The notes under the pieces: generated by a model | Told to the model about the DNA's origin: nothing | The model's database searches: none | The model's input: only the letters and a program-made list of their open reading frames with translations | Made by a program: the position numbers and the translations under genes | Origin: an uncultured Acidobacteriota bacterium | Lineage (GTDB): Bacteria > Acidobacteriota > Thermoanaerobaculia > Gp7-AA8 | Assembly: GCA_963741955.1 (NCBI GenBank) | Contig: CAVUKB010000010.1 | Coordinates: 96,001-160,000, forward strand | Direction of reading: 5' to 3' | Length of the DNA stretch: 64,000 nucleotides | In this document: piece by piece, positions 5,936 to 39,341 of the stretch | How positions within the stretch are numbered: the first letter of the stretch is position 1 | Layout: every line of letters begins with the position of its first letter

Positions 5936-6069
5936 GAGTCTGCGCGATGGAAACGAGGAGCAAAATCGTCGTCTGACGCCGCAGACCGGCCCGGATCGCG
6001 CTCCGCAGCAGAAGTCCCGTGAATCGTCCGGGCCGACTCTGCATCAGGAGCGGGAAGGAAAGTGGAGAC

Positions 6070-7359: not shown

Positions 7360-7497
7360 AACCGCGACCGGCCGCGCAGACGGCCGCCAACCGGACGAAA
7401 TCGCGAATCAATTCGAACCGGACCGGCACCGGTCAACAGGATCGGTCATCCCGCCGCTCCCGCCTTCGGGCGGTGCGGAGGGTCGAAAGAAGAGCAG

Positions 7498-8388: not shown

Positions 8389-8427
8389 GCTGACGGGAGC
8401 GATCGCCAAGGAGAAGAACAGGGAACG

Positions 8428-19668: not shown

Positions 19669-20223
19669 GTGGCCTCGAAGCTTCCGTCTTTCCCCGGTTC
19701 CAGGGATCTGGCGCACCTCGACAAGGTGGCGGCCGATGCGTGTTTCCAGTGCAACCGCTGCACGGCCGGATGCCCTCTTTTCGCCGCGATGGATCTCTCC
19801 CCCGCGCAGATGGTCCATCATCTCCTTCTCGGCGAGTGGGAGCCGGTGGTCGAGTCGGATGCGATCTGGGCCTGCGTCCATTGTGAAACGTGCACGGCGC
19901 GTTGCCCGCAGCAGGTCGACGTCTCCGGGCTCCTCCACGCGGCCCGCGTCGCGGCATGGCAGGCCGGAAGGCTTCCCCGCGACAAGACCATCGCCACGTA
20001 CTTCGCCTCTTTCGTGGAGAACCTCTACCTGTACGGTCGCTCGGCCGAGCTCCCGCTGACCCTGATCTGGAAGCTCAAGTCCGAGGACTATCTGCGGGAC
20101 ATGCTGCTCGGGATCCGGCTCCTTTCCCGAGGAAAGCTCGCTCTGTTCGGTCTGCCGAAGGGAGGCGCGACCTACCGCCGTCTCTACGATCGGGTGAAGC
20201 AGAAGGAGGCAGCCGGATCATGA
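19669..20223 (+). CDS. hdrC: Heterodisulfide reductase subunit C-like 2x[4Fe-4S] protein
   Basis: CFQCNRCTAGCP and CVHCETCTARCP. Confidence 0.88.
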   Translation: MASKLPSFPGSRDLAHLDKVAADACFQCNRCTAGCPLFAAMDLSPAQMVHHLLLGEWEPVVESDAIWACVHCETCTARCPQQVDVSGLLHAARVAAWQAGRLPRDKTIATYFASFVENLYLYGRSAELPLTLIWKLKSEDYLRDMLLGIRLLSRGKLALFGLPKGGATYRRLYDRVKQKEAAGS

Positions 20224-21098
20224 AACGCTACGCCTACTATCCCGGCTGCTCACTCGAGAAGATGACCAGCGAGTACGACGTTTCGTTCCGGAACGTCTGC
20301 GACGTTCTCGGCATCGAGCTGGAAGAGCCGCGCGACTGGTTCTGCTGCGGCGCGGGCATGGTCGGCAACGTCTCGCCGCTCCTCGGGCTCGCGGTCCCGT
20401 TGAAGAATCTCGTCCTGGCCCGCGAGACGGGACTGGGGGAGTTCGTTTCCCCCTGCTCGGCCTGTTACAACCAGTTCAAGCGCGCTCAGCACGAGATTTC
20501 TGAAGACCTGACCCTTCGCGCCGATCTCGAGGAGATCGTGGAGGCGCCCCTCGAGCATCAGCCCGAAGTTCTCCATCCCCTGGAGATGCTGCTGCGCGAG
20601 GTGAACGGCTCGAAGCCCCGAATCGAGCGATCCGCACCGGAGCTTCGTGTCGCCTGCTACTACGGATGTCTCCTCACCCGGCCGCCGAAGATCGTGACGT
20701 TCGACGATTGCGAGGATCCGCGGTCGATGGACCGGCTGCTGCAGCGGTTCGGCATCCAGACCATCGACTGGTCACAGAAGACGCGCTGCTGCGGCGCGTT
20801 CTACGCCATGGTGAATCCCGATCGCGTCCTCGAGCTCACCCGCGAGATTCTGCAGGGGGCTCTGGAGGCGGGGGCGAACGCCATCGCCGTCGCCTGCCCG
20901 GTCTGTCATCTGAATCTCGATTCGCGACAGCCGGAGGTGAACGACCGGTTCGGCACGACTTACGGCATCCCGGTTTTCTACTTTTCTCAGCTTCTCGGCT
21001 TCGCCCTCGGTGTCCCGACCGAAGGACTCGGCCTCTGGAGACATGTCGTCGATCCACAACCCCTCCTGAGCCCGAAAGCGGCCGTCGTCGCTGGTTGA
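20220..21098 (+). CDS. hdrB: Heterodisulfide reductase subunit B (CCG domains)
   Basis: ATGA overlap with hdrC. YYPGC, CCGAG, PCSAC, YYGC, CCGAF, ACPVCHLNLD. Confidence 0.92.
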   Translation: MKRYAYYPGCSLEKMTSEYDVSFRNVCDVLGIELEEPRDWFCCGAGMVGNVSPLLGLAVPLKNLVLARETGLGEFVSPCSACYNQFKRAQHEISEDLTLRADLEEIVEAPLEHQPEVLHPLEMLLREVNGSKPRIERSAPELRVACYYGCLLTRPPKIVTFDDCEDPRSMDRLLQRFGIQTIDWSQKTRCCGAFYAMVNPDRVLELTREILQGALEAGANAIAVACPVCHLNLDSRQPEVNDRFGTTYGIPVFYFSQLLGFALGVPTEGLGLWRHVVDPQPLLSPKAAVVAG

Positions 21099-21105
21099 GG
21101 CGCGT

Positions 21106-24100
21106 ATGAGTCAGACGAAGACAATCGGATCCGTTCTCGTGGTTGGAGGAGGCGTCGCAGGGATGCAGGCGGCTCTCGATCTGGCCGACTCGGGGTACAA
21201 GGTCTATCTGGCCGATCGCGAGAGCAGTATCGGCGGAACGATGGCGCAGCTCGACAAGACGTTCCCGTCGAACGACTGCGCGATGTGCATCCTCGCTCCG
21301 CGCCTGGTCTCGGCGGGACGTCACCTCAACATCGAGATTCTCCCGAGCACCGAGGTGCTGGGGGTGGAGGGAGAGGCGGGGAGATTCCGAGCGACGCTGC
21401 ACCGGCGCGGGATCTACATCGACGCATCGAAGTGCACCGGATGCGGCGAGTGCAGCCAGGTCTGCCCGGTCGATCTTCCGAACGAATTCAACTTCGGTCT
21501 CGGAACCCGCAAAGCGATCTCGCGCCGGTATCCGCAGGCGGTTCCGGCGAATTACACCATCACCAAACGTGAGCGGCCACCCTGCCAGACCGCGTGCGCC
21601 GCGGGAACGAACGTCCAGGGATACATCGCTCTCACTGCTCAGGGAAAATTCAAGGAAGCGCTCGACGTCGTACGCGAGCGGATGCCGTTCGCGTCGGTCT
21701 GCGGGCGCATCTGCCTTCACCGCTGCGAGAACGAATGCAACCGGAATCTGGTCGACGAGCCCGTCGCCATCATGCAGGTCAAGCGGTTTCTCGCCGACTG
21801 GGATTACGAGCAGGGGAATCCTCTTCCGCCTCCGGTTCCGAAGACCAGGACGGCGCGGATCGCGGTGATCGGCGGCGGACCTGCGGGGCTGGCGTGTGCG
21901 CACGACCTCGCGAAGGACGGATATCCGGTGACCCTGTTCGAATCGAGCGACGAGCTCGGCGGAATGCTCCGCTCGTGCATTCCGGAGTTCCGGCTTCCCG
22001 AAGCTCACCTCGAGCGCGACATCGAATTCCTTCTCTCGCCCGGCGTGGACGTGGTGCTGCGGAAATCCCTCGGGAGAGACTTCACCATCGAAGATCTCGA
22101 GAAGGAAGGATACCGAGCGGTCTTTCTCGCCACCGGGGCGTACAAGCCGAAGAAGCTTCCGATTCCCGGACACGATCTCGAGGGGATCAGCCTGAACATC
22201 GAGTTCCTCGAAGCGGTCCGCGCCGGTGAGCACGTCGATCCTGGCCGGCGGGTCCTGGTGATCGGCGGCGGTAACGTGGCGATCGACGTCGCACGTTCAG
22301 TACGACGACTCGGCGTCTCCAGCGTGACCATGGCCTGTCTCGAGAGCCGCGAGGCCATGCCCGCGCATTCGTGGGAAGTTCAGCAGGCGCTCGACGAAGG
22401 GATCGAGATTCTCAACGACGTCACCCTCAAGCGTTTCGTGGGCGAGAGAGGACACGTTCGTGGCGTCGAAGCGCGGCGTATCCGCGATCTGTCGTTCGAC
22501 GCGGAGGGGCGGATTCACCTCACCGAGGTTTCGGAGAGCGATTTCGCGATCGACGCGGACCGGATCATCGTGGCGATCGGGCAGACTCCTGAGCTGAGCT
22601 ATCTCGACTCGAGGAGCGGGGCGGTGCAGGTGAGCCGTCGCGGGCTGATCGAAGTCGATCCGGACACGCTCGCCACCAGACGTCCGGGAGTCTTCGCGGG
22701 TGGTGACGTGGTCGCCGAGCAGCCGGGGATCCGGATCTTCGCGGGTGGCGACGTGGTGACCGGAACGGCGTTCGTGGTCGACGCGGTCGCAGCCGGGCAT
22801 CGCGCCGCCGAGTCGATCGACCGCTACGTGGAAGGTCTTCCGTTCGCGGGGCCGAGACCGAAACCGAAGCCGTACAAGCTCACCCCCGAGGCCGTGGAAA
22901 AGAAGCTCCATGACGGCGAGATCCGGAAGAGCGTCCGGGCGATCGCGCCCGAAGCCGCTCCGGCAGCACGGGTCGCGAGCTTCGACGAGATTCAGGAAGG
23001 GTTCACCGAGGCGATGGCGGTCGCGGAAGCGAAACGCTGCCTTTCGTGCGGCCTCTGTTCGGAATGCCTCCAGTGCGTCGAGGTCTGTCAGGCGCATGCG
23101 ATCCGGCACGACTTTCCCCGCGACGAATACCGGACCATCGACGTCGGCGCGGTCATCCTCGCTCCGGGTCTCTCGGCGTTCGACCCGACCGAGAAGGGAG
23201 AGTACGGCTACAACCGCTATCCCAACGTCGTCACCAGCGTCGAATTCGAGCGCATCCTCAGCCCTTCCGGTCCTTTCGGCGGAAAGGTGCAACGTCCCTC
23301 GGATGGAAAGGCACCGAAGAAGATCGCATTCATCCAGTGCGTCGGATCACGCGAAGTCGGCCGCGACTACTGCTCGTCGGTCTGCTGCATGTACACCGCG
23401 AAACAGGCGGTGATCGCGAAGGAACATCAGCCGGGACTGGAGACCACGGTCTTTTACATCGATCTCCGTGCGGTGGCGAAGGGGTTCGAAGCGTACATCG
23501 ACCGGGCGAAGAGCGAAGGAGTGAGGTACGTCCGGTGCCGTCCGTCTGCGGTGACACACCTCCCGCAGAGTGGAGATCTGGTCGTCGAGTATGCAGACGA
23601 AGAAGGGCAGCATCGCGAGATGTTCGACATGGTCGTTCTCGCAGTCGCGCTCACTTCGTCGCCCGATCGGAGACAGCTCGCGCAGGCCGCGGGTATCCCG
23701 GTCAATGAGTATGGATTCGCGAGATCGATCGCCTTCGACCCGGAATCGACCAGCCGTTCCGGCGTCTTCGTCTGCGGGCCGTTCGTCGATCCGATGGACA
23801 TCCCGGAAACGGTGGCTGGCGCGAGCGCGGCGGCGGCGAAGGCGATGGCGCTCCTCGCCGACAGCCGGGGAACGCTGGTCCGGCCGAAGACCTATCCGCC
23901 GGAGAAGGATGTGACAGGGGAAGAGCCGCGCGCCGGTGTCTTCGTGTGCCACTGCGGGACGAACATCGCCGGCGTCGTCGACGTCGAAAAAGTGGTCGAC
24001 TATGCGAAGACTCTCCCGGGAGTGGTCCATGCGGAGCGTAACCTCTACACCTGTTCGGACGACACGCAGAAGCGGATCCGGGAAAAGATCGACGAGCTGA

Positions 24101-25608
24101 ATCTGAATCGGATCGTGGTCGCCTCCTGCACGCCGCGAACGCACGAAGCACTTTTCCGCGACACCATCCGCGAAGCGGGTCTGAACGAGTACTACTTCGA
24201 ATTGGCGAACATTCGCGACCAATGCTCCTGGGTCCACAAGAACCGGAAGGAGCAGGCGACGGAAAAGGCGAAGGATCTGGTGCGGATGGCTCTGGCCAAG
24301 GTGCGTCTCGACGAGCCGCTCCACAAGCGGCCTCTCGCCGTCACCCAGGCCGCGCTGGTCCTCGGCGGCGGAGTGAGCGGCCTCTCCGCCGCGCTCTCGC
24401 TCGCTGATCAGGGCTTTCAGGTTTTTCTGGTCGAGAAGGAACGGGACCTCGGCGGATATGCGAAAGAGCGTCGTTACCCGCTGACCGGCGAGGACACCCG
24501 GATGCGCCTGTGGGAGATGATGGCCCGGGCGCGCACGCATCCGAACATCCAGCTCATGCTGGGATCGACTCTCCAGAAGGTGGATGGCTCGCTCGGCAAC
24601 TTCAAGTCGACCATCGCTACGGATGGCTTCGAGCGCGAGATCGCACATGGCGTGGTGATCGTCGCGACCGGCGCAGAACGGTACGTGCCGAATCAGTACC
24701 TGTTCGGCGAAGATCCACGAGTGGTCCGCCTCTTCGAATTCGAAGAGATGATGGCCGACCACAAGGTCGACACCGATTCGGTGGTGTTCATCCAGTGTGT
24801 CGGTTCGCGGAACGAAGAGCATCCATGGTGCAGCCGCACCTGCTGCATGGAGTCGGTGAAGAACGCTCTGCGCGTGAAGCAGCAGAACCCCGGTGCCGAA
24901 GTCTCAGTGCTCTATCGCGACATCCGCACGTACGGGTACCGCGAGCTCTACTACCGGCAGGCGCGCGAGCGCGGAGTGCGATTCATTCGATTCGACGAAG
25001 CGCATCCGCCGCGGGTGGTCGCGGAGAACGGATCGCTTCGAGTGACGGTGCTGGATCAGATGACACGCCGTGAAGTGGACCTCGATGCGAAGGCGGTCGT
25101 TCTCGCGGCGGCGACGCTTCCGAATCGCGGTAACAAGGACATCGGTCAGATTCTGAAGGTCCCGCTGAGTGAGGACGGATTCTTTCTCGAGGCGCACCGG
25201 AAACTCCGCCCGGTCGATTTCGCGACGGACGGCATCTTTCTCTGCGGCGCCGCGCATTCGCCGGTGGGTTTGCGTGAGGCGGTCTCGCAGGCCGCCGCAA
25301 CCGCGTCGCGAGCGGCGACGATCCTCTCGAAGAGCGTGATCGACCTCGAGCCGACGATCTCTCAGGTGGTGAAAGAACGATGCGACGGTTGTGCGTACTG
25401 CGTCGATCCCTGCCCCTTCCACGCCATCACGCTGGTCGAGTACAGCGAGAACGGCGATACGAAGAAGCGCGTGGAAGTGGACGAAGCGGTCTGCAAGGGG
25501 TGTGGAACATGCGAGGCGACCTGTCCGAAGGGAGCGATCTTCGTGTGGCATTTCCGCCCCGAGCAATTGATGGCACAGGTCCACGCCGCACTCGATATCG
25601 CGGGGTGA
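21106..25608 (+). CDS. hdrA: Large HdrA-family flavoprotein (HdrL type: HdrA with GltD/NfnB-like NAD(P)H module plus second HdrA module)
   Basis: GGTMAQLDKTFPSNDCAMC; PCQTAC...CGRIC, IGGGPAG and GGGNVAID in the insert; two FIQCVGSR motifs; GVFVCHCGTNI; terminal ferredoxin motifs. Confidence 0.92.
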   Translation: MSQTKTIGSVLVVGGGVAGMQAALDLADSGYKVYLADRESSIGGTMAQLDKTFPSNDCAMCILAPRLVSAGRHLNIEILPSTEVLGVEGEAGRFRATLHRRGIYIDASKCTGCGECSQVCPVDLPNEFNFGLGTRKAISRRYPQAVPANYTITKRERPPCQTACAAGTNVQGYIALTAQGKFKEALDVVRERMPFASVCGRICLHRCENECNRNLVDEPVAIMQVKRFLADWDYEQGNPLPPPVPKTRTARIAVIGGGPAGLACAHDLAKDGYPVTLFESSDELGGMLRSCIPEFRLPEAHLERDIEFLLSPGVDVVLRKSLGRDFTIEDLEKEGYRAVFLATGAYKPKKLPIPGHDLEGISLNIEFLEAVRAGEHVDPGRRVLVIGGGNVAIDVARSVRRLGVSSVTMACLESREAMPAHSWEVQQALDEGIEILNDVTLKRFVGERGHVRGVEARRIRDLSFDAEGRIHLTEVSESDFAIDADRIIVAIGQTPELSYLDSRSGAVQVSRRGLIEVDPDTLATRRPGVFAGGDVVAEQPGIRIFAGGDVVTGTAFVVDAVAAGHRAAESIDRYVEGLPFAGPRPKPKPYKLTPEAVEKKLHDGEIRKSVRAIAPEAAPAARVASFDEIQEGFTEAMAVAEAKRCLSCGLCSECLQCVEVCQAHAIRHDFPRDEYRTIDVGAVILAPGLSAFDPTEKGEYGYNRYPNVVTSVEFERILSPSGPFGGKVQRPSDGKAPKKIAFIQCVGSREVGRDYCSSVCCMYTAKQAVIAKEHQPGLETTVFYIDLRAVAKGFEAYIDRAKSEGVRYVRCRPSAVTHLPQSGDLVVEYADEEGQHREMFDMVVLAVALTSSPDRRQLAQAAGIPVNEYGFARSIAFDPESTSRSGVFVCGPFVDPMDIPETVAGASAAAAKAMALLADSRGTLVRPKTYPPEKDVTGEEPRAGVFVCHCGTNIAGVVDVEKVVDYAKTLPGVVHAERNLYTCSDDTQKRIREKIDELNLNRIVVASCTPRTHEALFRDTIREAGLNEYYFELANIRDQCSWVHKNRKEQATEKAKDLVRMALAKVRLDEPLHKRPLAVTQAALVLGGGVSGLSAALSLADQGFQVFLVEKERDLGGYAKERRYPLTGEDTRMRLWEMMARARTHPNIQLMLGSTLQKVDGSLGNFKSTIATDGFEREIAHGVVIVATGAERYVPNQYLFGEDPRVVRLFEFEEMMADHKVDTDSVVFIQCVGSRNEEHPWCSRTCCMESVKNALRVKQQNPGAEVSVLYRDIRTYGYRELYYRQARERGVRFIRFDEAHPPRVVAENGSLRVTVLDQMTRREVDLDAKAVVLAAATLPNRGNKDIGQILKVPLSEDGFFLEAHRKLRPVDFATDGIFLCGAAHSPVGLREAVSQAAATASRAATILSKSVIDLEPTISQVVKERCDGCAYCVDPCPFHAITLVEYSENGDTKKRVEVDEAVCKGCGTCEATCPKGAIFVWHFRPEQLMAQVHAALDIAG

Positions 25609-28530: not shown

Positions 28531-28614
28531 TGCCATCGCGACCGGATCGCCACGGTCGGGCGATCCGGTCACGACGGCACAGACATGATGACTTCTTTGC
28601 GTTTCGGGGGAGCG

Positions 28615-29136
28615 ATGGAGCTCGATCGAGAGATGGTCCCCGACTTCTGTTCGAAGCCGGTGGTGGTACTGGGATGCGGAAATCTCCTCTGGGGAGACGA
28701 CGGATTCGGGTGTGAGCTGATCGCCTGGGTCGAGCAGCACTGCGAGATTCCGGAGCACGTCTGCATCCTCGATGCGGGGACCGGCGTACGGAAGCTTCTC
28801 TTCACCATGTGTGTCAGTCCGATCCGTCCGAAGCGCCTGGTGATCGTCGACGCGATCGACGTGAACCGGACTCCGGGAGAGGTGTTCGAGATCGACCCGG
28901 CCTCGATTCCCGCAGCGAAGCTCGACGATTTTTCTCTCCATCAGATCCCGACGTCGAATCTCCTTCGCGAGCTTCAGGAGGAATGCGGAGTGGAAGTGCG
29001 GATCCTCGCCTGTCAGACCGGAGCTCTCCCCGACGAGATCTCCCCCGGTCTCTCGGCTTCCGTGGCTGCCGCCCTCGGTCCGGCCGCCGAGCTGCTCGTC
29101 GACGAATATTTCCTTCCTCTCGCCCCGGCATCGTGA
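28615..29136 (+). CDS. Hydrogenase maturation protease
   Basis: LGCGNLLWGDDGFG, DAGT, IVDAID, SLHQ. ATG at 28615 follows GGGGAG. Confidence 0.92.
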   Translation: MELDREMVPDFCSKPVVVLGCGNLLWGDDGFGCELIAWVEQHCEIPEHVCILDAGTGVRKLLFTMCVSPIRPKRLVIVDAIDVNRTPGEVFEIDPASIPAAKLDDFSLHQIPTSNLLRELQEECGVEVRILACQTGALPDEISPGLSASVAAALGPAAELLVDEYFLPLAPAS

Positions 29137-29144
29137 GGTGATCC

Positions 29145-32100
29145 ATGCAAGAGAGCCGCGTCATTCATGCAGCGCACCTTCTCGCCTCGGTTTTCGTCCT
29201 CCTCCTGCTCGTCGGAGCCAGAGGGTTTCTGGCGACGCAGCCTTTTGTTTCGGCAATTCTGCTTCTGTTGTTCGTCCCCGTTTACTACACCGCAGCACGG
29301 GTGCGGAGCTTCGGACGTTTTCTCTATCCCGCCGCATTTCTGCTCGTACTCGCCTGGGCTCTCGTACTTCACGGTGCCGGGGTGCCTCTCGCGCTGCAAC
29401 CGGTCGGCGCCATCCTTCCGATCATCGGCTTTTACTGGGCGGGTGAGACCGGCGTCCCTCGCCGGGTGGAGAATTCGGCGGCCGTTCTCGGACGAGTGAA
29501 CGACATCATCATCGCGGTCTTCTCGCTCTGGATCGTGGTGCGGTTTTCGTGGTTTCTGAAGGAAGCGCCATGGGGTGCGGGCGCCGCGCTCGCGGTCTAC
29601 TCGGTCTTCCTGTGGCTCCGCTTCACCGACAATCGCCGGATCGCCTGGTCCGCAGCATCGGTACTTCTCGCGAGCGGCGCGTTCTACTTCGTGGTTCTCT
29701 GGCAGCCGCGCATCGCCCTTCTGGTCACCAGCCTCGCGCTGGTCGGTCTGGTGGTGGGACTCGCGATCAGCGAACGGCTGGAGGCTGTCGAAACGATCGG
29801 ATTCTCCGCGCCGGTCGCGTTCTTCGGACTCACCGGGATGCTCGCGGACGTGCCGATGGTGGTGCCGTCGGCCTGGCTGGGCTTCGGACTGGCGTGGCTT
29901 CTCCTGTCGATCTGGCTGTACGAGCCCGAGCGGACGCCGCTGATGTCGGAGAACGAAGGTTCGGCGGGAGCCGTCTCGCCGCACCTGATCGCGGGGATTC
30001 TTTCGATCATCGTCCCGATCTTCGTCTTCGACGTCTGGCGTAATGACGTCCTGTTCGGGGCCTGGCTCGCTTCGCTGTTTCTCGGGACGCTCGTTGCGGG
30101 GCGGGTATTCGGAGAGAACGCGGTCAGTCTCATCGAGGTCCTCTTCGCGCGAGTGCTCGGAGTACTCTCGCGGGTTGCTGCGCCGGTCTTTTTCGTCTTC
30201 GTTCTCCTCCACGGCGTCACCGGAAGTTTCCGGCTGGCGATCATCGCGTTCTTCTTCGCCGCGATCTCTCTCTCCGCAGGCTGGCAGACGGAGCCGCGGG
30301 TATTCACGCGACGGAATGCCCGGGTGTGGGAGGGGGGAGCGCTGCTCGCTCTCGGATGGTTTCTCGCCGTGCATCGGCTGTCGAGCAGCTCGTGGATCGA
30401 GCTTCTGCTGGCGTCGGGTGCGCCGCTGGTCTTTCTGCTGCTCCTGGAATCCCGACTCAGTGAGCGCCGGGAGAGGGGCGTCTACGGCGAGTCGCTCGCC
30501 GATTCTGCGGTCGTCGCGTCCATCCTCGCGTCGGTGCTCGCAGTGGTCGCGTCCCCGGACGATCTGATTCGGGCCGGCGTGATCGGCGGAATCCTCCTCC
30601 TCGCGACCGCCGCTGCGTTCTACTTCAGAAGAGAGCCGTCGACCCTCTACTCGGTTCCCGTGGTACTCGGCTACTGGATGTACATGGTCGCTCGGGCGGC
30701 GGGTGGAACCGGGGAACTGCTCGGCGTCCCGTACCTCGTGGTCGGGCTTCTCTCCGCATGGGTCGGATACGGGCTGCTGGCGCGCGATCGGCGATGGCAC
30801 CGGGTACTGCAGTTCATGTGGTTCCTCTGCACCGCAGTGGCGCTGTTCCTCTTTGCACCGTTCAGCGCGATCGGCGCGTGGCTTGCGCCGCTGTGGGCCG
30901 TCTCGTTCGTCCTGGTCGCCCGGGGGCGGGCAGCTCGGCGCGACGCGGCCTTTGCCAACGGGCTCGAGATCGCGGGAGGAATTCTGGCTGCAGCCAGTCT
31001 CGCGGTGCTGATCTGGAGAAGGATCGATCTCGCAGCCGCGACCGCGCTCTGTATCTACGCGCTGACGTGGGGCCTGACCGGGATCCTGAAGCGCGTCTAC
31101 GCTTATCTCTATCCTGCCACTCTCGCTGCGGTGGCCGCTCTCTTCTTCGTCGCGCGTCCGACCACCGGGGAGGAGTATTACCTGACCTGGGTCTTCCCGC
31201 TCGGCGCTGCGTTCCTGGCCGTTGCGATGCGATACCGGCGAAGAGATCGGAAGCCGCTCGCGATTCCGTGGGAGATCTCGACGCTGATTGCCACAGTCGC
31301 CGGAGCGGCACTCTTTCTTCTCCTTCCGTTCGGCGAGGCGCTCGCGCTCGGCGTGCTGACCGGAGCGGCCTGGCTGGTGATCTTCGGAATGGTCACCCTG
31401 CGCGCAGAGGAGTATCTCGCTGCCGCAGGTCTGGCGGCCGCATTCGTGCTGTACGAGCTTCTCCCGCTCTTCCAGGGGGTCAGCTCGTCGAATCGCCTCG
31501 CGGTTTTCGCTCCCGTCGCAATCGTTCTCGCAGTCGCGGGGAGGCTGCTCCAGCAGCGAGGGCGGGAGATCAAGGGATGGGCGGCGTGGGGCGCCGCGAC
31601 GACGGTCGCAGTCCTCGCCTCCGTTTTCGCGGTCTGGCCGGGAGGGACGGCAGTGGTGGCTGCCCGGATCGTGCTGGTGATCGCCGCGCTTCTCTGGGCG
31701 CTCCTTCTCGCCTGGAGTCAGAAGGAAGGTTTCGTGTATCTCGCGACGCTGACCCTCGCGATTCTCACCTGGAGCTTCGTCGCGAGCTCGTCCGATCTCT
31801 TCGGAAGGCACCTCTTCGCGTTCTTCGTCGTCGGGGTCGCGCTGCTCGGGGCGATCTTTCTCGCCTCCGCACTGCGGACGCGCTTCAGATTCCGCGAGCC
31901 GACGCTCTACGCACCGTCGTGGCGCTGGAGCCACCGATTTCTCTATCTCGTCCCCGTCGCGATTCTCGGTGTGGCCGTCTTCGGGAGCTGGGGAGTGACC
32001 ACCAGTTCCAATCCCTATTTCTGCGGAAGCTGCCACGACATGGGGACCTACTTCGCCAACTGGAAGGACTCGCCCCACGCCCGTGCGGAAGTCAGCTGCG

Positions 32101-32762
32101 ATCGCTGCCACTACGAACCGGGAGTCGGTGGATTCGTCAGAGCGAAGATCCGCGGCACCTCGGAGCTCGTCACTACCCTCACCGGCACGCAGCGCCCGAA
32201 ACCGGTTGCGGAAGTCACGAATGACCGCTGCCTCGCGTGTCACCCGATGGCGAAGCTCGGGAAGACCATTCGGGTCGCGGACAGCTGGAACTTCAATCAT
32301 GTGCGGCACCTGGCCGCGCCGTTGACTCGAGGCCCCGCGAAGCTGCGATGCACCAGCTGCCACACCGACGTGGGAAGTGCGACTCATTTCGCGGTCGACA
32401 CGAACGCGTGTTTCACCTGTCACTTCGAGACCTCCGCATCCGCGCGACTCGCGGCCAGCGTCGGTTGCATCGGATGCCATGACCTTCCTGGATCGAAGAG
32501 CCGCTTCGATCACGTCGCCGCAGGCATCGAGAGAAACGACGACACGTGCGCGTCTTGTCACGATTCCGCATCGAGGGGAACCATGCTGGTCGAGATCCGC
32601 CAGTGCCGGCACTGCCATGAGGAAAGCGGACGCGATCTTCTGAACGCGGCCGACGTACACGCCATTCACGATCTTCACGTCACCGGAAAGGGAGTGGGAT
32701 GCGACTGGTGCCACGGGGTCATTCAGCACGAGAAAGTTGACACGAAACTCGCCATGAAGTAG
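29145..32762 (+). CDS. Very large polytopic membrane protein fused to a nine-heme NapC/NrfH-like c-type cytochrome
   Basis: About 940 aa of consecutive hydrophobic helices, then CGSCH, CDRCH, CLACH, CTSCH, CFTCH, CIGCH, CASCH, CRHCH, CDWCH. Confidence 0.88.
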   Translation: MQESRVIHAAHLLASVFVLLLLVGARGFLATQPFVSAILLLLFVPVYYTAARVRSFGRFLYPAAFLLVLAWALVLHGAGVPLALQPVGAILPIIGFYWAGETGVPRRVENSAAVLGRVNDIIIAVFSLWIVVRFSWFLKEAPWGAGAALAVYSVFLWLRFTDNRRIAWSAASVLLASGAFYFVVLWQPRIALLVTSLALVGLVVGLAISERLEAVETIGFSAPVAFFGLTGMLADVPMVVPSAWLGFGLAWLLLSIWLYEPERTPLMSENEGSAGAVSPHLIAGILSIIVPIFVFDVWRNDVLFGAWLASLFLGTLVAGRVFGENAVSLIEVLFARVLGVLSRVAAPVFFVFVLLHGVTGSFRLAIIAFFFAAISLSAGWQTEPRVFTRRNARVWEGGALLALGWFLAVHRLSSSSWIELLLASGAPLVFLLLLESRLSERRERGVYGESLADSAVVASILASVLAVVASPDDLIRAGVIGGILLLATAAAFYFRREPSTLYSVPVVLGYWMYMVARAAGGTGELLGVPYLVVGLLSAWVGYGLLARDRRWHRVLQFMWFLCTAVALFLFAPFSAIGAWLAPLWAVSFVLVARGRAARRDAAFANGLEIAGGILAAASLAVLIWRRIDLAAATALCIYALTWGLTGILKRVYAYLYPATLAAVAALFFVARPTTGEEYYLTWVFPLGAAFLAVAMRYRRRDRKPLAIPWEISTLIATVAGAALFLLLPFGEALALGVLTGAAWLVIFGMVTLRAEEYLAAAGLAAAFVLYELLPLFQGVSSSNRLAVFAPVAIVLAVAGRLLQQRGREIKGWAAWGAATTVAVLASVFAVWPGGTAVVAARIVLVIAALLWALLLAWSQKEGFVYLATLTLAILTWSFVASSSDLFGRHLFAFFVVGVALLGAIFLASALRTRFRFREPTLYAPSWRWSHRFLYLVPVAILGVAVFGSWGVTTSSNPYFCGSCHDMGTYFANWKDSPHARAEVSCDRCHYEPGVGGFVRAKIRGTSELVTTLTGTQRPKPVAEVTNDRCLACHPMAKLGKTIRVADSWNFNHVRHLAAPLTRGPAKLRCTSCHTDVGSATHFAVDTNACFTCHFETSASARLAASVGCIGCHDLPGSKSRFDHVAAGIERNDDTCASCHDSASRGTMLVEIRQCRHCHEESGRDLLNAADVHAIHDLHVTGKGVGCDWCHGVIQHEKVDTKLAMK

Positions 32763-32799
32763 TCAACTTGAGAAACTATTTCAAGGCGAAAGGGAACAT

Positions 32800-33420
32800 A
32801 TGGTGAAGACCTCCGCGAAAGGGTGGATTGGAGAGTTTCTCGGGAGCGCGCACATTTTTGCGTCGGCTGTCGAGGACGTGCTCGAGAGAAAGATTCTCGA
32901 TGAAGTGGCGGGCAAGCAGATCACCCACTCTCAGTTCCGTCTTCTCAAGATGGTCGAGCTCGCGGACACCCAGACCATCCGCGACGTGGCGATCTTTCTC
33001 GGGATCAGCAATGCGGCTGCGAGCAAGGCGGTGGACAAACTGGTGAAGAAGCACTTTCTGCTGCGGGAAGAAGCAGAGGTCGACCGGCGCGAGATCCGTC
33101 TCTCTCTCACCGACTCGAGCCGGAAGATCCTCGCCGATTACGACCGGGCACGAGACGAGAAGCTCGCGCGGATCTTCTCGGATTTTTCTTCCGACCAGTT
33201 GAAGGACGCTTCCATCCTTCTCGATCGTCTCTCCGCGGGTCTGGTGGACCACCACGACAATCCCGACGATCTCTGTCTCCAGTGCGGCATCTATTTCCGG
33301 CAGAGATGCGTCGTCCGTGAGCTCGCGAAGAGGGACTGTTTCTTCCACCAGAACCGCGCCGCGCGCCGCGGCAGGGTGGCCGATGTGGAGCCTTTGCCGA
33401 GTACGGTTGAATCGGAGTAG
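32800..33420 (+). CDS. MarR-family regulator with C-terminal four-Cys cluster
   Basis: wHTH (ITHSQF...AASKAVDKLV...DRRE.RLSLT) plus CLQCGIYFRQRC...DC. Confidence 0.85.
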   Translation: MVKTSAKGWIGEFLGSAHIFASAVEDVLERKILDEVAGKQITHSQFRLLKMVELADTQTIRDVAIFLGISNAAASKAVDKLVKKHFLLREEAEVDRREIRLSLTDSSRKILADYDRARDEKLARIFSDFSSDQLKDASILLDRLSAGLVDHHDNPDDLCLQCGIYFRQRCVVRELAKRDCFFHQNRAARRGRVADVEPLPSTVESE

Positions 33421-33483
33421 TACCGGATCGTCGACCGGGCGAGCGTGTCGCTCGATCGAACAGAAGAGAATCGGGAGAACATC

Positions 33484-33750
33484 ATGTGCCTCGCGGTACC
33501 GGGAAAGATTCTGACCAGGGAGATGAAGAACGGGTCGCTCACCGCGCGGGTGCGGTTCGGTGGGATCACCCGCGAGGCATACCTCGATTTCGTGCCGGAA
33601 GCCGGCGTGGGGGACTACGTGATGGTCCACGTCGGGTTCGCGATCAGCCGGGTCGACGAAGAAGAAGCGCAACGCACGTACCGGATTCTCGAGAGCATGG
33701 GTCTTCTGGAGGGTGAGCTCGGTCCCGGCGAAGAGACTGTCGAATCATGA
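33484..33750 (+). CDS. hypC: Hydrogenase chaperone HypC
   Basis: MCLAVPG N-terminus, GDYVMVHVGFAI. Confidence 0.96.
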   Translation: MCLAVPGKILTREMKNGSLTARVRFGGITREAYLDFVPEAGVGDYVMVHVGFAISRVDEEEAQRTYRILESMGLLEGELGPGEETVES

Positions 33751-33820
33751 CCCCTGCATCACGAATGCAGGCTCGTAACGAAGCAAAGATCGCCGGCAGG
33801 CGAAGACGATCGAGGCGGCC

Positions 33821-34918
33821 GTGAAATACATCGACGAATACCGCGACGAGAAGATCGCGCGATCGCTGGTCGAGCGCATCCGGCGCCGGGTGACTCGCCC
33901 GGAGGTACTGATGGAGATCTGCGGCGGGCAGACTCACACGCTGATGCGCTACGGCATCGACGAGATGCTGCCGCCCGAGATCGAGCTGGTCCACGGACCG
34001 GGGTGCCCGGTCTGTGTCACACCGCTGGAGACGCTCGACAAGGCGATCGAGATCGCCTCCCTTCCGGACGCCACGCTCGTCTCCTACGGGGACATGTTGC
34101 GTGTTCCCGGCTCCCGCTCGGATCTGTTCCGGATCAAAGCGGAAGGAGGCGACGTTCGAATCGTTTACTCGCCGGCGGAAGCGGTGAAGATCGCGCGTTC
34201 CAATCCGGAGCGGCGGGTGGTCTTCTTCGGCGTCGGCTTCGAGACCACTGCTCCCGCGAACGCGATGGCCGTCTACCTCGCGAAACGCGAAGGGCTGAGA
34301 AACTTCTCGATGCTGGTCTCGCACGTCCTCGTCCCGCCCGCGATCCGTCTCCTCCTCGAGTCGAAGTCGAACCGGGTGCAGGGCTTCATCGCTCCCGGTC
34401 ACGTCTGTACCGTGGTCGGCTATGCGGATTACGAAACGCTTGCGAGAGATTACCGGGTGCCGATGGTGATCGGAGGTTTCGAGCCGGTCGATCTTCTCGA
34501 GGCGATTGCCATGCTCGTCGATCAGCTCGAAGACGGACGTTACGAGGTCGAGAACCAGTACGTCCGCTCCGTCGGATACCGCGGCAATATCCCCGCCCAG
34601 CAGCTGATGGAAGAAGTCTTCGAAGTCTGCGACCGGAAGTGGCGGGGAATCGGATCGATCCCGATGAGTGGGTTCGCCATCCGGCCGGAGTACGCCGCCT
34701 ACGATGCGGAGAAGATCTTTCCGCTCGAGAGCATCACCGCCGAGGAGCCGCCGGAGTGCATCAGCGCACTGGTGCTGCAGGGGCTTCGCAAACCGATCCA
34801 CTGTCCCGTGTTCGCCACGCGATGCACGCCGGAGATGCCCATGGGAGCTCCGATGGTCTCTGCGGAGGGTGCCTGCGCCGCGTACTACCACTACCGCCGT
34901 CACGCCGCCGCCGGATGA
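33821..34918 (+). CDS. hypD: Hydrogenase maturation protein HypD
   Basis: [35 protein letters not shown]. Confidence 0.96.
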
Positions 34919-34926
34919 GGTGAGTC

Positions 34927-35985
34927 ATGTCCGATGCCGTATCGATTGAGAATTTTGCCTGTCCGGTTCCGATCGCCAGACGCGATCGCGTCCTTCTCGG
35001 CCACGGCAGCGGAGGCAAGCTGAGCGCCGAGCTCCTGTCGGAGCTTTTCCTCCCGACCTTTTCGAACGACGTGCTCGGGAGAATGGATGACCAGGCGATC
35101 GTCGATGTCGAAGGCGTTCGAATCGCGTTCACCACCGACAGCTTCGTGGTCAAGCCGCTCTTCTTTCCCGGAGGGGACATCGGCTCGCTCGCCGTGCACG
35201 GCACGATCAACGATCTTGCGATGGGAGGCGCGAAGCCTCTTTTCCTCAGCGTCGCCTACATCATCGAGGAAGGACTGGAGATGGAGGTCCTGCGCCGGCT
35301 GACGGAGTCGGTGCAGCGCGCGGCGGAGGCTGCGGGCGTGACCGTGGTGACGGGCGATACGAAGGTGGTGGAGAAGGGGAGTGGCGACGGGCTCTTCATC
35401 AACACGTCGGGGATCGGAGTGGTTCCGAAGGATCGCGATCTCTCTGCTTCGCACGCCCGTCCGGGGGACCGAGTGATCCTCAGCGGCTCGATCGGCGATC
35501 ACGGAATCGCGATCATGACCCGTCGCGAAGGTCTCGAGTTCGAGAGCGACATCGAGAGCGATTCGGCGGCGCTGCACGGTTTGACTGCCCGGATGCTGAA
35601 AGCATCGAGCAACATCCGCTGCATGCGCGATCCGACGCGCGGGGGCCTGTCGAGCACGTGCAACGAGATCGCCGCCTCCTCCGCAGTCGGGATCACCCTC
35701 GACGAGCGCACCATTCCGGTTCGGGAGGAAGTCCAGGGCGCGTGCGAGCTTCTCGGGCTCGACCCGCTGTACGTCGCGAACGAGGGGAAACTCGTGGCGA
35801 TCGTCGATCCTGCGGACGCGGATCGGGTGATCGAGGCGATGCGGTGCGACCCGCTGGGTCGCGAGGCGCGGATCATCGGGACGGTGACCGGCGACTCGCC
35901 CGGCCTGGTGATCATGCGCACCCGTTTCGGGACCAGCAGGATCGTGGACATGCTCGCCGGCGACCAGCTGCCGAGGATCTGCTGA
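34927..35985 (+). CDS. hypE: Carbamoyl dehydratase HypE
   Basis: HGSGG, TTDSFVV, RDPTRGG, ANEG, C-terminal PRIC. Confidence 0.96.
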   Translation: MSDAVSIENFACPVPIARRDRVLLGHGSGGKLSAELLSELFLPTFSNDVLGRMDDQAIVDVEGVRIAFTTDSFVVKPLFFPGGDIGSLAVHGTINDLAMGGAKPLFLSVAYIIEEGLEMEVLRRLTESVQRAAEAAGVTVVTGDTKVVEKGSGDGLFINTSGIGVVPKDRDLSASHARPGDRVILSGSIGDHGIAIMTRREGLEFESDIESDSAALHGLTARMLKASSNIRCMRDPTRGGLSSTCNEIAASSAVGITLDERTIPVREEVQGACELLGLDPLYVANEGKLVAIVDPADADRVIEAMRCDPLGREARIIGTVTGDSPGLVIMRTRFGTSRIVDMLAGDQLPRIC

Positions 35986-35993
35986 GGAGAACG

Positions 35994-36341
35994 ATGCACG
36001 AGCTGGGAATTGCTGCCGCTCTGCTCGACGCGATCCGCGTCGAAGTCGCGAAGCACCCGGGCGGACGCGCGTCCAGAGTCGGCATCCGGATCGGCGAGAT
36101 CAGCGGAGTCGATCCCGACGCTCTCGGTTTCAGTTTCGAATGCCTTCTCTCCGACTCCGGTCTCGCTCCTCTGCAGCTGGAAATCGAGACCTGTCCCCGA
36201 ATTCAGAAATGCAGCTCGTGCGGGCATCGCTTCGACGTGGTCGATCTCGATACCCGCTGTCCATCATGCGCTGAGCGATTGACCGAATGTGTCGGCGGGA
36301 CGGAGCTCGATCTCGCCTGGCTGGAGGTAGAACGACCATGA
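35994..36341 (+). CDS. hypA: Nickel metallochaperone HypA
   Basis: MHE N-terminus, CSSC...CPSC. RBS GAGGAG. Confidence 0.93.
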   Translation: MHELGIAAALLDAIRVEVAKHPGGRASRVGIRIGEISGVDPDALGFSFECLLSDSGLAPLQLEIETCPRIQKCSSCGHRFDVVDLDTRCPSCAERLTECVGGTELDLAWLEVERP

Positions 36342-37015
36342 CCCGAATCGCGATGGAAGGAAAGATTCTCAACGAGAACCAGCGCATCGCCGCGGAGCTT
36401 CGCGAGCGATATGAAGCGAACGGTCTGCTGACCCTCAATCTCATCAGCTCTCCCGGCGCCGGAAAGACGTCGCTGCTCGAGAAGACTCTGCAGCGATTCG
36501 ACCGCGCTCGACGCGTCGCCCTCCTGACCGGAGACATCCAGACGGATCTCGACGCCGGCCGGCTGGCCCGTTTCGGATTTCCGGTCCGGCAGATCACGAC
36601 CAGCGGCGCGTGCCATCTCGACGCGAAAATGGTCGAGCGGGCACTGGATGGATGGGATCTCGGCACACTCGAGCTTCTTCTGATCGAGAACGTCGGCAAT
36701 CTCGTCTGTCCCTCCAGCTTCGACCTCGGCGAAGAGTCGAAAATCGTGGTGTTCAGCGTCGCCGAGGGGGAGGAAAAGCCGCTCAAGTATCCGGGGACCT
36801 TCGCGCGGGCGGAACTGGTGATCATCAACAAGATCGACCTTCTGGGTCATGTGCCGTTCGACATCGAAAAGGCACGCGAGAATACCGAGCGAAGCAATCC
36901 CGGAGTCCGGGTGATCGAGCTCTCGTGCACCACCGGGGACGGGATCGCGGAATGGGAATCGTGGATCGAGGAGAAGCTCGGCGCGAAACGCGATCTCACT
37001 GCGGTGGTCCACTGA
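36338..37015 (+). CDS. hypB: Nickel incorporation GTPase HypB
   Basis: SSPGAGKT, CHLDA, ENVGNLVCP, KPLKYP, NKID. Confidence 0.95.
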   Translation: MTRIAMEGKILNENQRIAAELRERYEANGLLTLNLISSPGAGKTSLLEKTLQRFDRARRVALLTGDIQTDLDAGRLARFGFPVRQITTSGACHLDAKMVERALDGWDLGTLELLLIENVGNLVCPSSFDLGEESKIVVFSVAEGEEKPLKYPGTFARAELVIINKIDLLGHVPFDIEKARENTERSNPGVRVIELSCTTGDGIAEWESWIEEKLGAKRDLTAVVH

Positions 37016-37040
37016 AGGAACGAGATCGGTCGAGGATCCG

Positions 37041-39341
37041 ATGCCGGATCATTCCCATCTGATTGTCGAGCCCTCGATGAGAAAGTCGATCGAGGTCGGC
37101 GGGATCGTGCAGGGAGTCGGATTCCGTCCTTTCATCCACCGCCTGGCATCGTCGTGCGGCGTGAACGGCTCGGTCGGGAACACTGCACGTGGTGTGACCA
37201 TCGAGATCGAGGGGACGGGATCGGCGCTGCAGAGTTTTCTCGAGCGGCTCCCTGCGGAGCTGCCGCCGCTCGCGCGAATCACCAGATTCGCGGTGCGTGA
37301 TCTTCCGGCGACCGGAGAGACCGGATTCCAGATCGTCGCCAGCAGTCACGAAGCTTCGGCTTCGGTGCTCGTCTCGCCGGACATCGCGGTCTGTCCCGAT
37401 TGTCTCCGGGAAATGTTCGACCCGGCCGACCGCCGCTACCGCTACCCGCTCATCAACTGCACCAACTGCGGCCCGCGGTTCACCATCATCCGCCGGCTTC
37501 CGTACGACCGTCCGAACACCTCCATGGACCGGTTTCCGATGTGCGACGAATGCAGGCGCGAGTACGAGGATCCGACGGACCGACGGTTCCACGCGCAACC
37601 GAACGCGTGCTGGGAGTGTGGCCCGCGTCTAGACTGGTGGGATTCCGCAGGATCGCGAATCGAGTGCGATGACCCGATCGCTGCTGCTGCCGCAGCGCTC
37701 GCGCGAGGAGAGATCGTCGCGATCAAAGGGCTGGGAGGATTTCACCTTGCGGTCGACGCGACGAATCGCGAGGCAGTTCAGCGGTTGCGTGAACGGAAGG
37801 GACGGGTGGACAAACCGTTCGCGGTCATGGTACCGGCAATCGATGCCGCGAGAGCGCTCTGCGAGATCGGGTCAGGTGCCACCGAGCTCCTCTCGCCCCA
37901 GCGTCCGATCGTCCTGATGCCGTGGAAGCGGTCCACGGAGGTGGCTGAAGCGGTCGCTCCGCGAAGCGTCACCCTCGGATTGTTCCTTCCCTACACTCCG
38001 ATGCAGTTTCTTCTGTTTGCGGCGGGTGCTCCGCAGGCCCTGGTGATGACCAGCGCAAACGTGAGCGAAGAGCCGATCGCGATAGACAACCGGGACGCGG
38101 TCGCGCGGCTCGGGGGTATCGCGGATTCGTTTCTGGTGCACGATCGCGACATTCTGAGGCGGTGCGACGATACGGTGATGCGGCTGGCCGGAGGAAGTCC
38201 GCGGCAGGTGCGGCGCTCACGCGGATTCGTACCGGCGCCGATCGCCCTCCACTGCGAAGTCCCATCCGTGCTCGCCGTCGGTGCGGAGCTCAAGAACAGC
38301 GTCTGCATCACGCGGGGGAACGAAGCGATGCTCAGCCAGCACGTCGGAGACATCGAGAACCTCGAGGCGTTCCGGTTCTTCGAAGAAGTGATCGCCCACA
38401 TGAAGCAGGTGTTCGAGATCGACCCGGAGATCGTGGCGTGCGATCTTCATCCCGACTACTTTCCTTCCAGGTGGGCGCGATCGCTGGAGGGAAAGACCAT
38501 CGTCGAAGTGCAGCACCATCACGCTCACGTCGCGAGCTGCATGGCCGAGAACGGCCTCACCGGAAAGGTGATCGGAATCGCGCTCGATGGCACCGGCTAC
38601 GGAACGGACGGAACCATCTGGGGCGGCGAGATCCTGGTCGCAGACTACGCGTCCTTCGATCGTGTCGCGAGTTTCGAGGAGACGCCGATGCCCGGAGGCG
38701 AGGCGGCGATCCGTCAGCCATGGCGAATGGCGCTGGCTCACCTGGACCGGAGCTACGGCCGGGATCTGTTCAATCTGGAGATACCTTTCGTCCGGCAGCT
38801 CGACCGGGGCAAAGCCACGACTCTCCTCGGGATGATCTCGCAGCGATTCAACTCTCCCGTGACGACGAGCTGCGGCCGTCTGTTCGACGCGGTTGCAGCA
38901 CTCATCGGTGTCCGCGAGAGCGTCAACTACGAAGCACAGGCGGCCATCGAGCTGGAGGCGGTCGCGAGCGAGGAGTTTCACGGAAGCTATGCCGCGGACG
39001 TCCACGAGGGACGGGAGAGGCTGGTGATCGGCACAGCGCCGCTGATCGAGGCCATCGTCGGGGATCTGCGTCGGAACGTGCCCGCACCAGTCATCTCGAG
39101 CCGCTTTCACCGCGGCATCATCGAGGCTCTCGCACGCTGCTGCCGGATCATCGGTTCCAGAACGGGCCTCCGGCGGGTCTGCCTGAGCGGTGGAAGCTTT
39201 CAGAACCGGATTCTGCTCGAAGGGGTGATCGAGGAGCTGACCGGGGATCGGTTCGAGGTATTCACGCACGCCTCGGTTCCCACCGGCGATGGCGGCATCG
39301 CGCTGGGTCAGGCGATGGTGGCCGCCGCGCGGATGAAATGA
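37041..39341 (+). CDS. hypF: Carbamoyltransferase HypF
   Basis: GIVQGVGFRP, CTNCGPR zinc fingers, KGLGGFHL, QHHHAH, GDGGIALGQ. Confidence 0.96.
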   Translation: MPDHSHLIVEPSMRKSIEVGGIVQGVGFRPFIHRLASSCGVNGSVGNTARGVTIEIEGTGSALQSFLERLPAELPPLARITRFAVRDLPATGETGFQIVASSHEASASVLVSPDIAVCPDCLREMFDPADRRYRYPLINCTNCGPRFTIIRRLPYDRPNTSMDRFPMCDECRREYEDPTDRRFHAQPNACWECGPRLDWWDSAGSRIECDDPIAAAAAALARGEIVAIKGLGGFHLAVDATNREAVQRLRERKGRVDKPFAVMVPAIDAARALCEIGSGATELLSPQRPIVLMPWKRSTEVAEAVAPRSVTLGLFLPYTPMQFLLFAAGAPQALVMTSANVSEEPIAIDNRDAVARLGGIADSFLVHDRDILRRCDDTVMRLAGGSPRQVRRSRGFVPAPIALHCEVPSVLAVGAELKNSVCITRGNEAMLSQHVGDIENLEAFRFFEEVIAHMKQVFEIDPEIVACDLHPDYFPSRWARSLEGKTIVEVQHHHAHVASCMAENGLTGKVIGIALDGTGYGTDGTIWGGEILVADYASFDRVASFEETPMPGGEAAIRQPWRMALAHLDRSYGRDLFNLEIPFVRQLDRGKATTLLGMISQRFNSPVTTSCGRLFDAVAALIGVRESVNYEAQAAIELEAVASEEFHGSYAADVHEGRERLVIGTAPLIEAIVGDLRRNVPAPVISSRFHRGIIEALARCCRIIGSRTGLRRVCLSGGSFQNRILLEGVIEELTGDRFEVFTHASVPTGDGGIALGQAMVAAARMK

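Follow-up and report, generated by a model that had tools for sequence, protein, structure and literature searches.

A many-helix membrane protein with an NrfH-type nine-heme cytochrome in a hydrogenase-heterodisulfide reductase operon of an uncultured Acidobacteriota bacterium

Introduction

What does a giant membrane protein with nine c-type hemes do in the operon of a hydrogenase-heterodisulfide reductase complex that is normally soluble? The question is raised by a 64,000-nucleotide stretch of DNA from an uncultured Acidobacteriota bacterium (hereafter the window; contig CAVUKB010000010.1), in which a gene that we call X joins a membrane repeat domain to an NrfH-type cytochrome amid mvh and hdr genes. 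It bears on a broader one: to our knowledge, the acceptor of HdrBC in bacteria without CoM-CoB and DsrC is an open question. We conclude that X likely connects the complex with the quinone pool of the membrane and with the periplasm. The quinone pool thereby becomes a testable answer, reached through a dedicated membrane module that the same operon encodes. The fusion, the heme motifs, the operon, the repeats and the NrfH-equivalent residues were read from sequence; the topology, the solenoid and the NrfH fold come from structural models.

Results

X is one protein with two very different parts

X is one real protein of 1,205 residues (coordinates in Table 1). Its single open frame starts at an ATG 8 nt downstream of the protease gene, and marR begins 37 nt after its end. 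The N-terminal ~950 residues are hydrophobic and are followed by nine CxxCH motifs, starting at residues 960, 985, 1029, 1069, 1089, 1108, 1135, 1154 and 1186, the first of which reads CGSCHDM. PF03264 (NapC/NirT) matches residues 937-1016 with 31.2 bits against a cut-off of 24.1, and further Pfam matches, to c7/c3-type repeats, also fall in the C-terminal part only. An earlier note on this DNA, made from the sequence alone, had seen a NapC/NrfH-style start and nine CxxCH, and both are borne out. A public contig spans positions 28548-33500 with one substitution and zero gaps, although it possibly derives from the same sample and is hence not independent.

A homologue search with X returned 28 proteins: X itself, 24 at 39-45% identity and three distant ones. 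As clusters, 22 of the 24 closer homologues cover at least 89% of X, and the three distant fused proteins, 1,340-1,360 residues long, align over 1,066 columns. All nine hemes are present in 19 of the 22 near-full-length homologues; the other three have altered tails. Because fused homologues exist and the public contig is free of gaps, X is not the product of a lost stop codon. The unusual fusion reported in the earlier note is thus genuine, and the situation that this note had named as fatal to it, with the two halves as separate genes everywhere else, does not hold.

An antisense open frame of 1,238 residues (29013-32729, minus strand) overlaps X. In the span that was translated it lacks both hydrophobic segments and heme motifs, and we interpret it as a shadow frame of high-GC DNA.

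The cytochrome part carries a predicted NrfH-type quinol site

By its domain match, modelled fold, site residues and predicted topology, the C-terminal module of X is placed in the NapC/NirT/NrfH/CymA family. A second model, covering residues 884-1200, had a predicted local distance difference test score (pLDDT) of 74.2. Its top Foldseek match was NrfH of Desulfovibrio vulgaris (2j7a_C; probability 1.00, E 5e-3, template modelling score 0.52 by target), and comparison of residues 931-1084 with NrfH 14-148 (VIA) gave Z 8.3 and a root-mean-square deviation (rmsd) of 3.5 over 129 aligned residues, hemes 5-9 being barely covered by the fold comparison.

In the sequence alignment with NrfH (E 0.048), M966, H978, K1001 and E1007 of X correspond to Met49, His61, Lys82 and Asp89, the last of which we take to act at the quinol site. 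Among the aligned homologues M966 is kept in 51 of 52 rows and K1001 in 50 of 53 (Arg in the other three), and position 1007 is Glu or Gln in 46 of 53. Met49 is described as a heme ligand in NrfH, and the lysine, Lys82 in NrfH and Lys91 in CymA, as having a role at the quinol site (10.1101/2022.01.10.475773; PMC2762525). Eight further His are conserved in the cytochrome of X, a number which would fit eight bis-His hemes and one open heme. The C-terminal module therefore likely oxidises menaquinol at an NrfH-type site, in agreement with the CxxCHxM quinol site of the earlier note: M966 and K1001 are aligned and conserved, and NrfH heads the fold matches.

X shares with NrfH the anchor helix, the four-heme fold, CxxCHxM and the equivalents of Lys82 and Asp89, but has five more hemes and 34 more membrane helices, and its operon has no NrfA-like gene. 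It is not NrfH proper: TIGR03153 scores 41.8 bits where 134.2 are required, and X has 1,205 residues and nine hemes versus ~160 and four.

The membrane part is predicted to be a helical-repeat solenoid

AlphaFold2 modelling of residues 1-1197 with 69 sequences (pLDDT 82.8) gave 35 long helices, 34 of them arranged as hairpins before the NapC-type anchor helix. Hydropathy scans found 28 segments in the single sequence and 33 in the family average. The 'roughly 30' helices of the earlier note were thus a slight underestimate. Arg and Lys in the loops number 49 after even helices (inside) against 14 after odd ones (outside), a bias significant across the family (p = 1.3e-6). From this positive-inside bias and the odd helix count, the N-terminus is placed inside and the cytochrome outside, so that the hemes are predicted to face the periplasm, as expected in the earlier note for c-hemes.

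The domain is built of repeats of about 100 residues, 24 of 28 pairs of which score higher than reversed controls (14-49 versus 10-19), and its two halves match each other at four registers with 95-97% probability. Foldseek of the whole model gave nothing at E 0.001, and the weak rows were all helical solenoids. In a wide fold search, designed helical repeats and TPR proteins came foremost; the best matches had Z 13.9 (a designed circular repeat, rmsd 19.1, 394 aligned) and Z 12.5 (rmsd 3.1, 117 aligned), values of a size common for helical repeats. No transporter, NrfD-like or antiporter-like fold appeared among the listed matches, the whole model being above the advised search size. A TPR sequence motif was limited to a single match at E 0.09.

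Sequence families were likewise uninformative. Pfam placed no family on residues 1-936 at E 0.01; no convincing Pfam or NCBIfam family was found for aligned membrane segments (18 and 13 segments); and NCBIfam gave one match below cut-off (PTS IIABC, residues 680-768, E 5.5e-4). The ESM Atlas held no match of 0.9 or above for the domain, and DUF2339/SCO7613 were weak leads (Atlas 0.80-0.81; one homologue at E 3e-6, below cut-off; no match to the aligned segments at E 0.1). The possibility raised in the earlier note that the membrane part matches a known unrelated family was not realised in these searches. The domain is predicted to resemble a TPR-like solenoid, and these searches found no family or solved relative for it.

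The domain has no invariant His or Cys, and no His in it exceeds 73% conservation. The partly conserved ones are H11 (40 of 55 rows), H32 (33 of 53; Gln in X itself) and H889 (37 of 53; Asp in eight rows), and H11 and H889 lie toward opposite membrane faces. The sole Cys column above 30% (866) is Leu in X. With no conserved His pair or Cys, a heme-b wire and a thiol relay were both rejected, and the suggestion in the earlier note of electron conduction across the membrane is not supported for this domain. Charged helix residues R336, R343, D/E453, E608, E710, E771 and R841 are conserved in the close clade and mostly not kept in distant members; at position 453 an acidic residue stands in 53 of 58 rows. 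Conservation is highest at repeat positions with Pro, Gly or aromatic residues and at Arg in the loops. Among the three roles proposed in the earlier note, that of an anchor or scaffold may fit the modelled fold best, and ion translocation is poorly supported.

Co-folding of HdrB with membrane residues 270-955 scored 0.00, without control runs, and was counted neither way.

Homologues are scattered, rare and split only inside the membrane domain

With the membrane part alone as query, 37 representatives were found. They include all-membrane proteins of ~550-630 residues matching residues 1-600 of X, and proteins of ~600-780 residues with 9-13 helices and a cytochrome. These two parts are adjacent genes in five loci (L012, L016, L092, L093 and L094), where the split point lies near residue 600, inside the membrane domain, and never at the membrane-cytochrome junction. 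One 879-residue match without hemes (P0039) ends abruptly; its close relative L083 is fused. In another homologue, a frame change near the end (L009:13473-13586) loses heme 9, through sequencing error or decay.

Named carriers of near-full-length X are Acidobacteriota, and Planctomycetota and Anaerolineae have distant fused forms. X is conserved in scattered bacteria, yet rare. It was present in one of 36 same-family genomes. When a profile of the C-terminal membrane part was run against 400 other Acidobacteriota (five candidates scored per genome) and 250 Anaerolineae-class genomes, no further carrier turned up. Four samples of relatives of distant carriers gave 0/80, 1/120 (clear), 1/120 and 0/100; a weak match there (G810) was set aside as an unrelated membrane gene by genomic context. 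A profile search with the distant fused forms recovered only its own first row. A metagenome scan with P0032 returned nothing, and one with Chloroflexota N-halves at least three loci; among RNA records no match was listed.

Relatives of the cytochrome alone were also seen: single-helix NapC-type proteins with ~18 heme motifs (L017-L036; Planctomycetota, Myxococcota and others), several of them near nine-heme six-helix proteins. Since such single-helix relatives exist, the cytochrome domain of X is modular. An Armatimonadetes record (L039:9974-12160) has a 728-residue NapC-type protein with 32 heme-like motifs by a loose pattern.

X keeps company with Hdr and quinone genes

The operon reads, all on the plus strand, hdrC-hdrB-hdrL-mvhD-mvhG-mvhA-protease-X-marR-hypCDEABF. 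The neighbours of X match the Mvh-Hdr (group 3c-type) set: mvhD, mvhG and mvhA with hdrA, hdrB and hdrC. In NCBIfam they come closest to VhuA/G/D and HdrA/B/C, without reaching the archaeal cut-offs of these families. HdrL (21106-25608) has two HdrA-like FAD modules and a GltD-like NAD(P)H domain and is ~70% conserved among carriers; an HdrA of this make-up is named HdrL in PMC2702500. The Mvh hydrogenase is the sole NiFe hydrogenase match in the genome, which is 99.1% complete and holds two futalosine-pathway menaquinone genes and three cytochrome c assembly matches. No DsrC match was found in it.

Neighbours were counted at 22 other loci with membrane-linked X (L001-L016, L083, L088, L089, L092-L094); kin among these are not independent, and the counts are descriptive. 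hdrB lies near X at 10 of the 22, from Acidobacteriota, Chloroflexota, Planctomycetota and Cloacimonadota; eight contigs end before its usual place and four loci have none. The order hdrCB-hdrL-mvhDGA-protease-X is constant in L002-L011 wherever the contig shows it. In the Anaerolineae genome L083 a fused copy follows mvhD-mvhG-mvhA-protease, and this protein clusters with those of Acidobacteriota in one clade (support 96/99; cytochrome-region tree of 47 rows, with deeper forks not settled). A MarR gene follows X in most Acidobacteriota loci (L004-L011), not in L003.

Outside the Mvh clade the company changes. Ten loci lack mvhA, and of these eight have a quinone-biosynthesis-type neighbour and four a Rieske/cytochrome b set. 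hdrCB stands directly downstream of X in Planctomycetota and Cloacimonadota; in L015, X is followed by hdrC, hdrB, an HdrA/NuoE fusion, NuoF-like and NuoG-like genes and mvhD. Anaerolineae-type loci have MenA-like and MenG-like genes (scores under the cut-off) upstream of X. In L012 (5330-9211) and L092 (9932-13053) the order is Rieske-hdrC-hdrB-cytochrome b, with hdrCB inside a split Rieske/cytochrome b set. L016 and L089 continue with Rieske, cytochrome b, multihemes and a molybdenum enzyme, and L093 and L094 have a diheme cytochrome near X.

In Planctomycetota (L014, L015, L088) a HemN-like radical SAM gene lies upstream of X. The two complete proteins match exactly four and five of the six menaquinone-methyltransferase motifs of PMC10320005, a paper that also describes such a HemN-like protein as a heme chaperone. 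The MenK-like gene suggests methylmenaquinone use in these bacteria. The MenK-like genes are at L015:5515-6834 and L088:6414-7952 (minus strand), directly upstream of fused X and of a cluster of Hdr, Nuo-like and MvhD genes.

Judged by gene content, the common theme of the neighbours is quinone chemistry, and the ties of X to Hdr and quinone chemistry are closer than those to hydrogenase. The interpretation in the earlier note is supported in part: the operon link is conserved, but hydrogenase is no constant partner.

Mvh also occurs without X. An MvhA-like gene without X was found in 93 of 400 other Acidobacteriota (a like sample), and the closest X-less MvhA relative, at 78%, has a NuoG-like/HdrA fusion and no hdrBC beside it. 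Since such loci exist, X is not needed for Mvh as such, and an essential role in hydrogenase maturation was ruled out by Mvh without X in the same clade. That same-clade operon (L095:499-7634, minus strand) encodes the 1,083-residue NuoG-like/HdrA fusion and, where X would be, a 79-residue membrane frame.

Discussion

The explanation that we favour, with a confidence slightly short of even, is that X is a menaquinol-oxidising wire on a cofactor-free scaffold and gives the Mvh-Hdr complex a quinone outlet. Cytoplasmic MvhAGD would oxidise H2, and HdrL would split the electrons between its own NAD(P) domain and HdrC-HdrB. HdrB would pass its share to menaquinone at the cytoplasmic face, by analogy with SdhE, an HdrB-like subunit annotated as the anchor of a methylmenaquinol:fumarate reductase. 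On the outer side heme 1 would re-oxidise the quinol, and the electrons would travel along hemes 2-9 to periplasmic acceptors. The 34 modelled helices would form a solenoid without cofactors that holds quinone-reactive partners, here Mvh-HdrL-HdrCB, beside the quinol site. Together these steps would make a redox loop that translocates protons, the large membrane domain itself containing no redox centre.

Several observations weigh against this. The reactivity of HdrB with quinone would follow by analogy only, and HdrB of the operon reaches the cut-off of neither family, with 159 bits for HdrB and 147 for SdhE. Position 1007 is non-acidic in more than half of the rows, and a Met after CxxCH need not ligate, as in ImoA (10.1101/2022.01.10.475773). 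AlphaFold2 gave X a predicted template modelling score of 0.68. Four loci (L016, L089, L093, L094) have no hdrB, although L093 and L094 are near-identical and L089 has no upstream DNA, so HdrBC is no obligate partner. HdrB proteins of different phyla are only 32-42% alike, and the search for thiol carriers covered DsrC only.

Among the rival readings, X may be a menaquinol dehydrogenase that is merely co-regulated with Hdr-Mvh and exchanges with the bulk quinone pool, its solenoid binding Rieske/cytochrome b, quinone-synthesis enzymes or lipid, or shaping a quinone-rich patch. We give this perhaps a one-in-five standing: the partners do vary by lineage (L016 and L089 have Rieske/cytochrome b with a molybdenum enzyme, L093 and L094 a diheme cytochrome), the X-less Mvh-type operons of Acidobacteriota suit it, and outside the Mvh clade the commonest neighbours encode a prenyltransferase, a methyltransferase or a MenK-like protein (8/10); it sits poorly with the gene order kept in L002-L011, and from mvhD on in L083, and with hdrCB right after X in Planctomycetota and Cloacimonadota. 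Flow could also run backwards, from periplasmic donors through the hemes and heme 1 to (methyl)menaquinone and on through HdrBC-HdrL to NAD(P)+ or, by confurcation, H2. The Planctomycetota loci lend this some colour, their MenK-like protein suggesting a low-potential quinone and their hdrCB, HdrA/NuoE fusion, NuoF-/NuoG-like genes and mvhD accompanying X, as do the molybdenum enzyme and multiheme proteins of L016 and L089. The genome of the window, however, has no MenK motif and matches MenK at only 26-28%, and with plain menaquinone the path would, on the potentials that we assume, be uphill; we regard it as unlikely.

Two further rivals concern the membrane domain itself. A pump for H+ or Na+, powered by the quinone reaction at heme 1, would accord with the size of the domain, the charged helix residues of the close clade and the acidic position 453, but most of these charges are not kept in distant members, the modelled fold is a helical repeat, a gene of its own can encode between one third and two thirds of the domain, and conservation is highest at the repeat Pro, Gly, aromatic and loop Arg; a pump is improbable. 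Conduction through b hemes or a thiol relay is more doubtful by far: the partial conservation of H11, H32 and H889 speaks for it, against the lack of any invariant His, the opposite faces of H11 and H889, and Leu in place of the best Cys. We attach almost no weight to an assembly error or lost stop codon. The single-helix cytochrome relatives and the split homologues would allow it; 22 independent near-full-length fused clusters, the absence of a split at the junction and the gap-free contig contradict it, and the lost stop codon was rejected on the fused homologues.

Known systems resemble X in parts. ImcH and CbcL of Geobacter are inner-membrane multiheme quinol oxidases with ~3 and 6 helices, those of CbcL forming a cytochrome b. 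Like X they pair a multiheme c domain with several membrane helices and lead from quinol to the periplasm; X differs in having 35 helices and no b-heme ligands. HdrDE, QmoABC and the SdhE-anchored methylmenaquinol:fumarate reductase tie Hdr-type subunits to membrane quinone carriers. HdrE and QmoC use b hemes in a small membrane domain, and neither a repeat domain nor a periplasmic wire of NrfH type is known from any of these three systems. Cytochrome b subunits of the HdrE, QmoC and CbcL type need invariant membrane His pairs, which X lacks. DUF2339 (PF10101) and SCO7613 C-terminal domain proteins are likewise large and many-helix, and uncharacterised, without a profile match to X, and TPR-like alpha-solenoids stack hairpins as X is predicted to do, but theirs are soluble whereas the helices of X are hydrophobic and positive-inside. 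MvhADG-HdrABC and Desulfobacterium autotrophicum HdrL have the same gene set and HdrL make-up and are described as soluble (PMC2702500); the X operon adds a membrane cytochrome, in a genome without a DsrC match.

The membrane domain of X is undescribed and of no family that we found; its cytochrome is of the known NrfH/CymA kind. No title or abstract describing X was found in a literature search that left aside subscription journals and bioRxiv supplements, and the accessible part of the preprint on peat multiheme cytochromes does not mention NapC or Hdr. As a predicted 34-helix membrane repeat solenoid the domain is a structural surprise, and in no fewer than five lineages it is encoded next to quinone-reactive complexes and genes for quinone modification. 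A bolder proposal, which we consider rather unlikely as a whole, is a new class of respiratory membrane protein, in which an intrabilayer alpha-solenoid of 34 helices would organise a supercomplex, with cytoplasmic electron-bifurcating Hdr modules, or else Rieske/cytochrome b complexes, docked next to a quinol site of NrfH type and a periplasmic wire of 9 to 12 hemes. In bacteria that lack DsrC, menaquinone would then be the missing high-potential acceptor of HdrBC, and a soluble bifurcating hydrogenase would become part of a redox loop that conserves energy. Even as a mere co-regulated quinol dehydrogenase, X would have an architecture not described before, in bacteria of soil, peat and sediment.

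Other features of the window and genome

Table 1. Features of X and its operon (positions in the window; residues numbered in X)
Feature	Position	Strand	Basis
hdrC-like gene	19669..20223	+	profile match
hdrB-like gene, two CCG domains, cysteines retained	20220..21098	+	profile match
hdrL-type gene, 1,500 residues: HdrA with inserted glutamate-synthase-small-subunit-like NAD(P)H domain	21106..25608	+	
mvhD	25612-26076	+	
mvhG	26128-27057	+	
mvhA	27054-28499	+	
Hydrogenase maturation protease (start approximate)	28660..29136	+	profile match
X, giant fused gene, 1,205 residues: membrane repeat domain and NrfH-type nine-heme cytochrome	29145..32762	+	
N-part of membrane domain, residues 1-600, predicted helices 1-22; separate gene of ~550-640 residues in split lineages	29145..30944	+	
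C-part of membrane domain, residues 601-913, predicted helices 23-34; cytochrome-fused in split lineages; homologous to N-part	30945..31883	+	
Arg-rich cytoplasmic linker, residues 914-928, low model confidence	31884..31928	+	
NapC/NrfH-type anchor helix (helix 35, residues 929-953)	31929..32003	+	
NrfH-like four-heme module, residues 931-1084	31935..32396	+	fold match 2j7a_C
Heme 1 motif CxxCHxM, residues 960-966; M966 aligns with NrfH Met49	32022..32042	+	
Predicted quinol-site residues K1001 and E1007 (NrfH Lys82 and Asp89 in alignment)	32145..32165	+	
Hemes 5-9, five more CxxCH, residues 1089-1190	32409..32714	+	
MarR-family regulator	32800..33420	+	Pfam
hypC, hypD, hypE, hypA, hypB, hypF	33445..39341	+	Pfam

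The genome has 21 frames with at least three heme motifs, possible acceptors for the heme wire of X, and two adjacent open reading frames, with 11 hemes and five helices and with six hemes and three helices (G000:C9:80065-83913, outside the window), are reminiscent of CbcL and ImcH. A divergent gene for a 237-residue membrane protein with His motifs (18761-19474, minus strand) is kept upstream of the operon in G024 (56%); it has no NCBIfam match, and we take it to resemble a nickel transporter. The reading frames at 4665-9726 presumably form a tyrosine-catabolism cluster, with hydroxyphenylpyruvate dioxygenase, homogentisate dioxygenase and fumarylacetoacetase.

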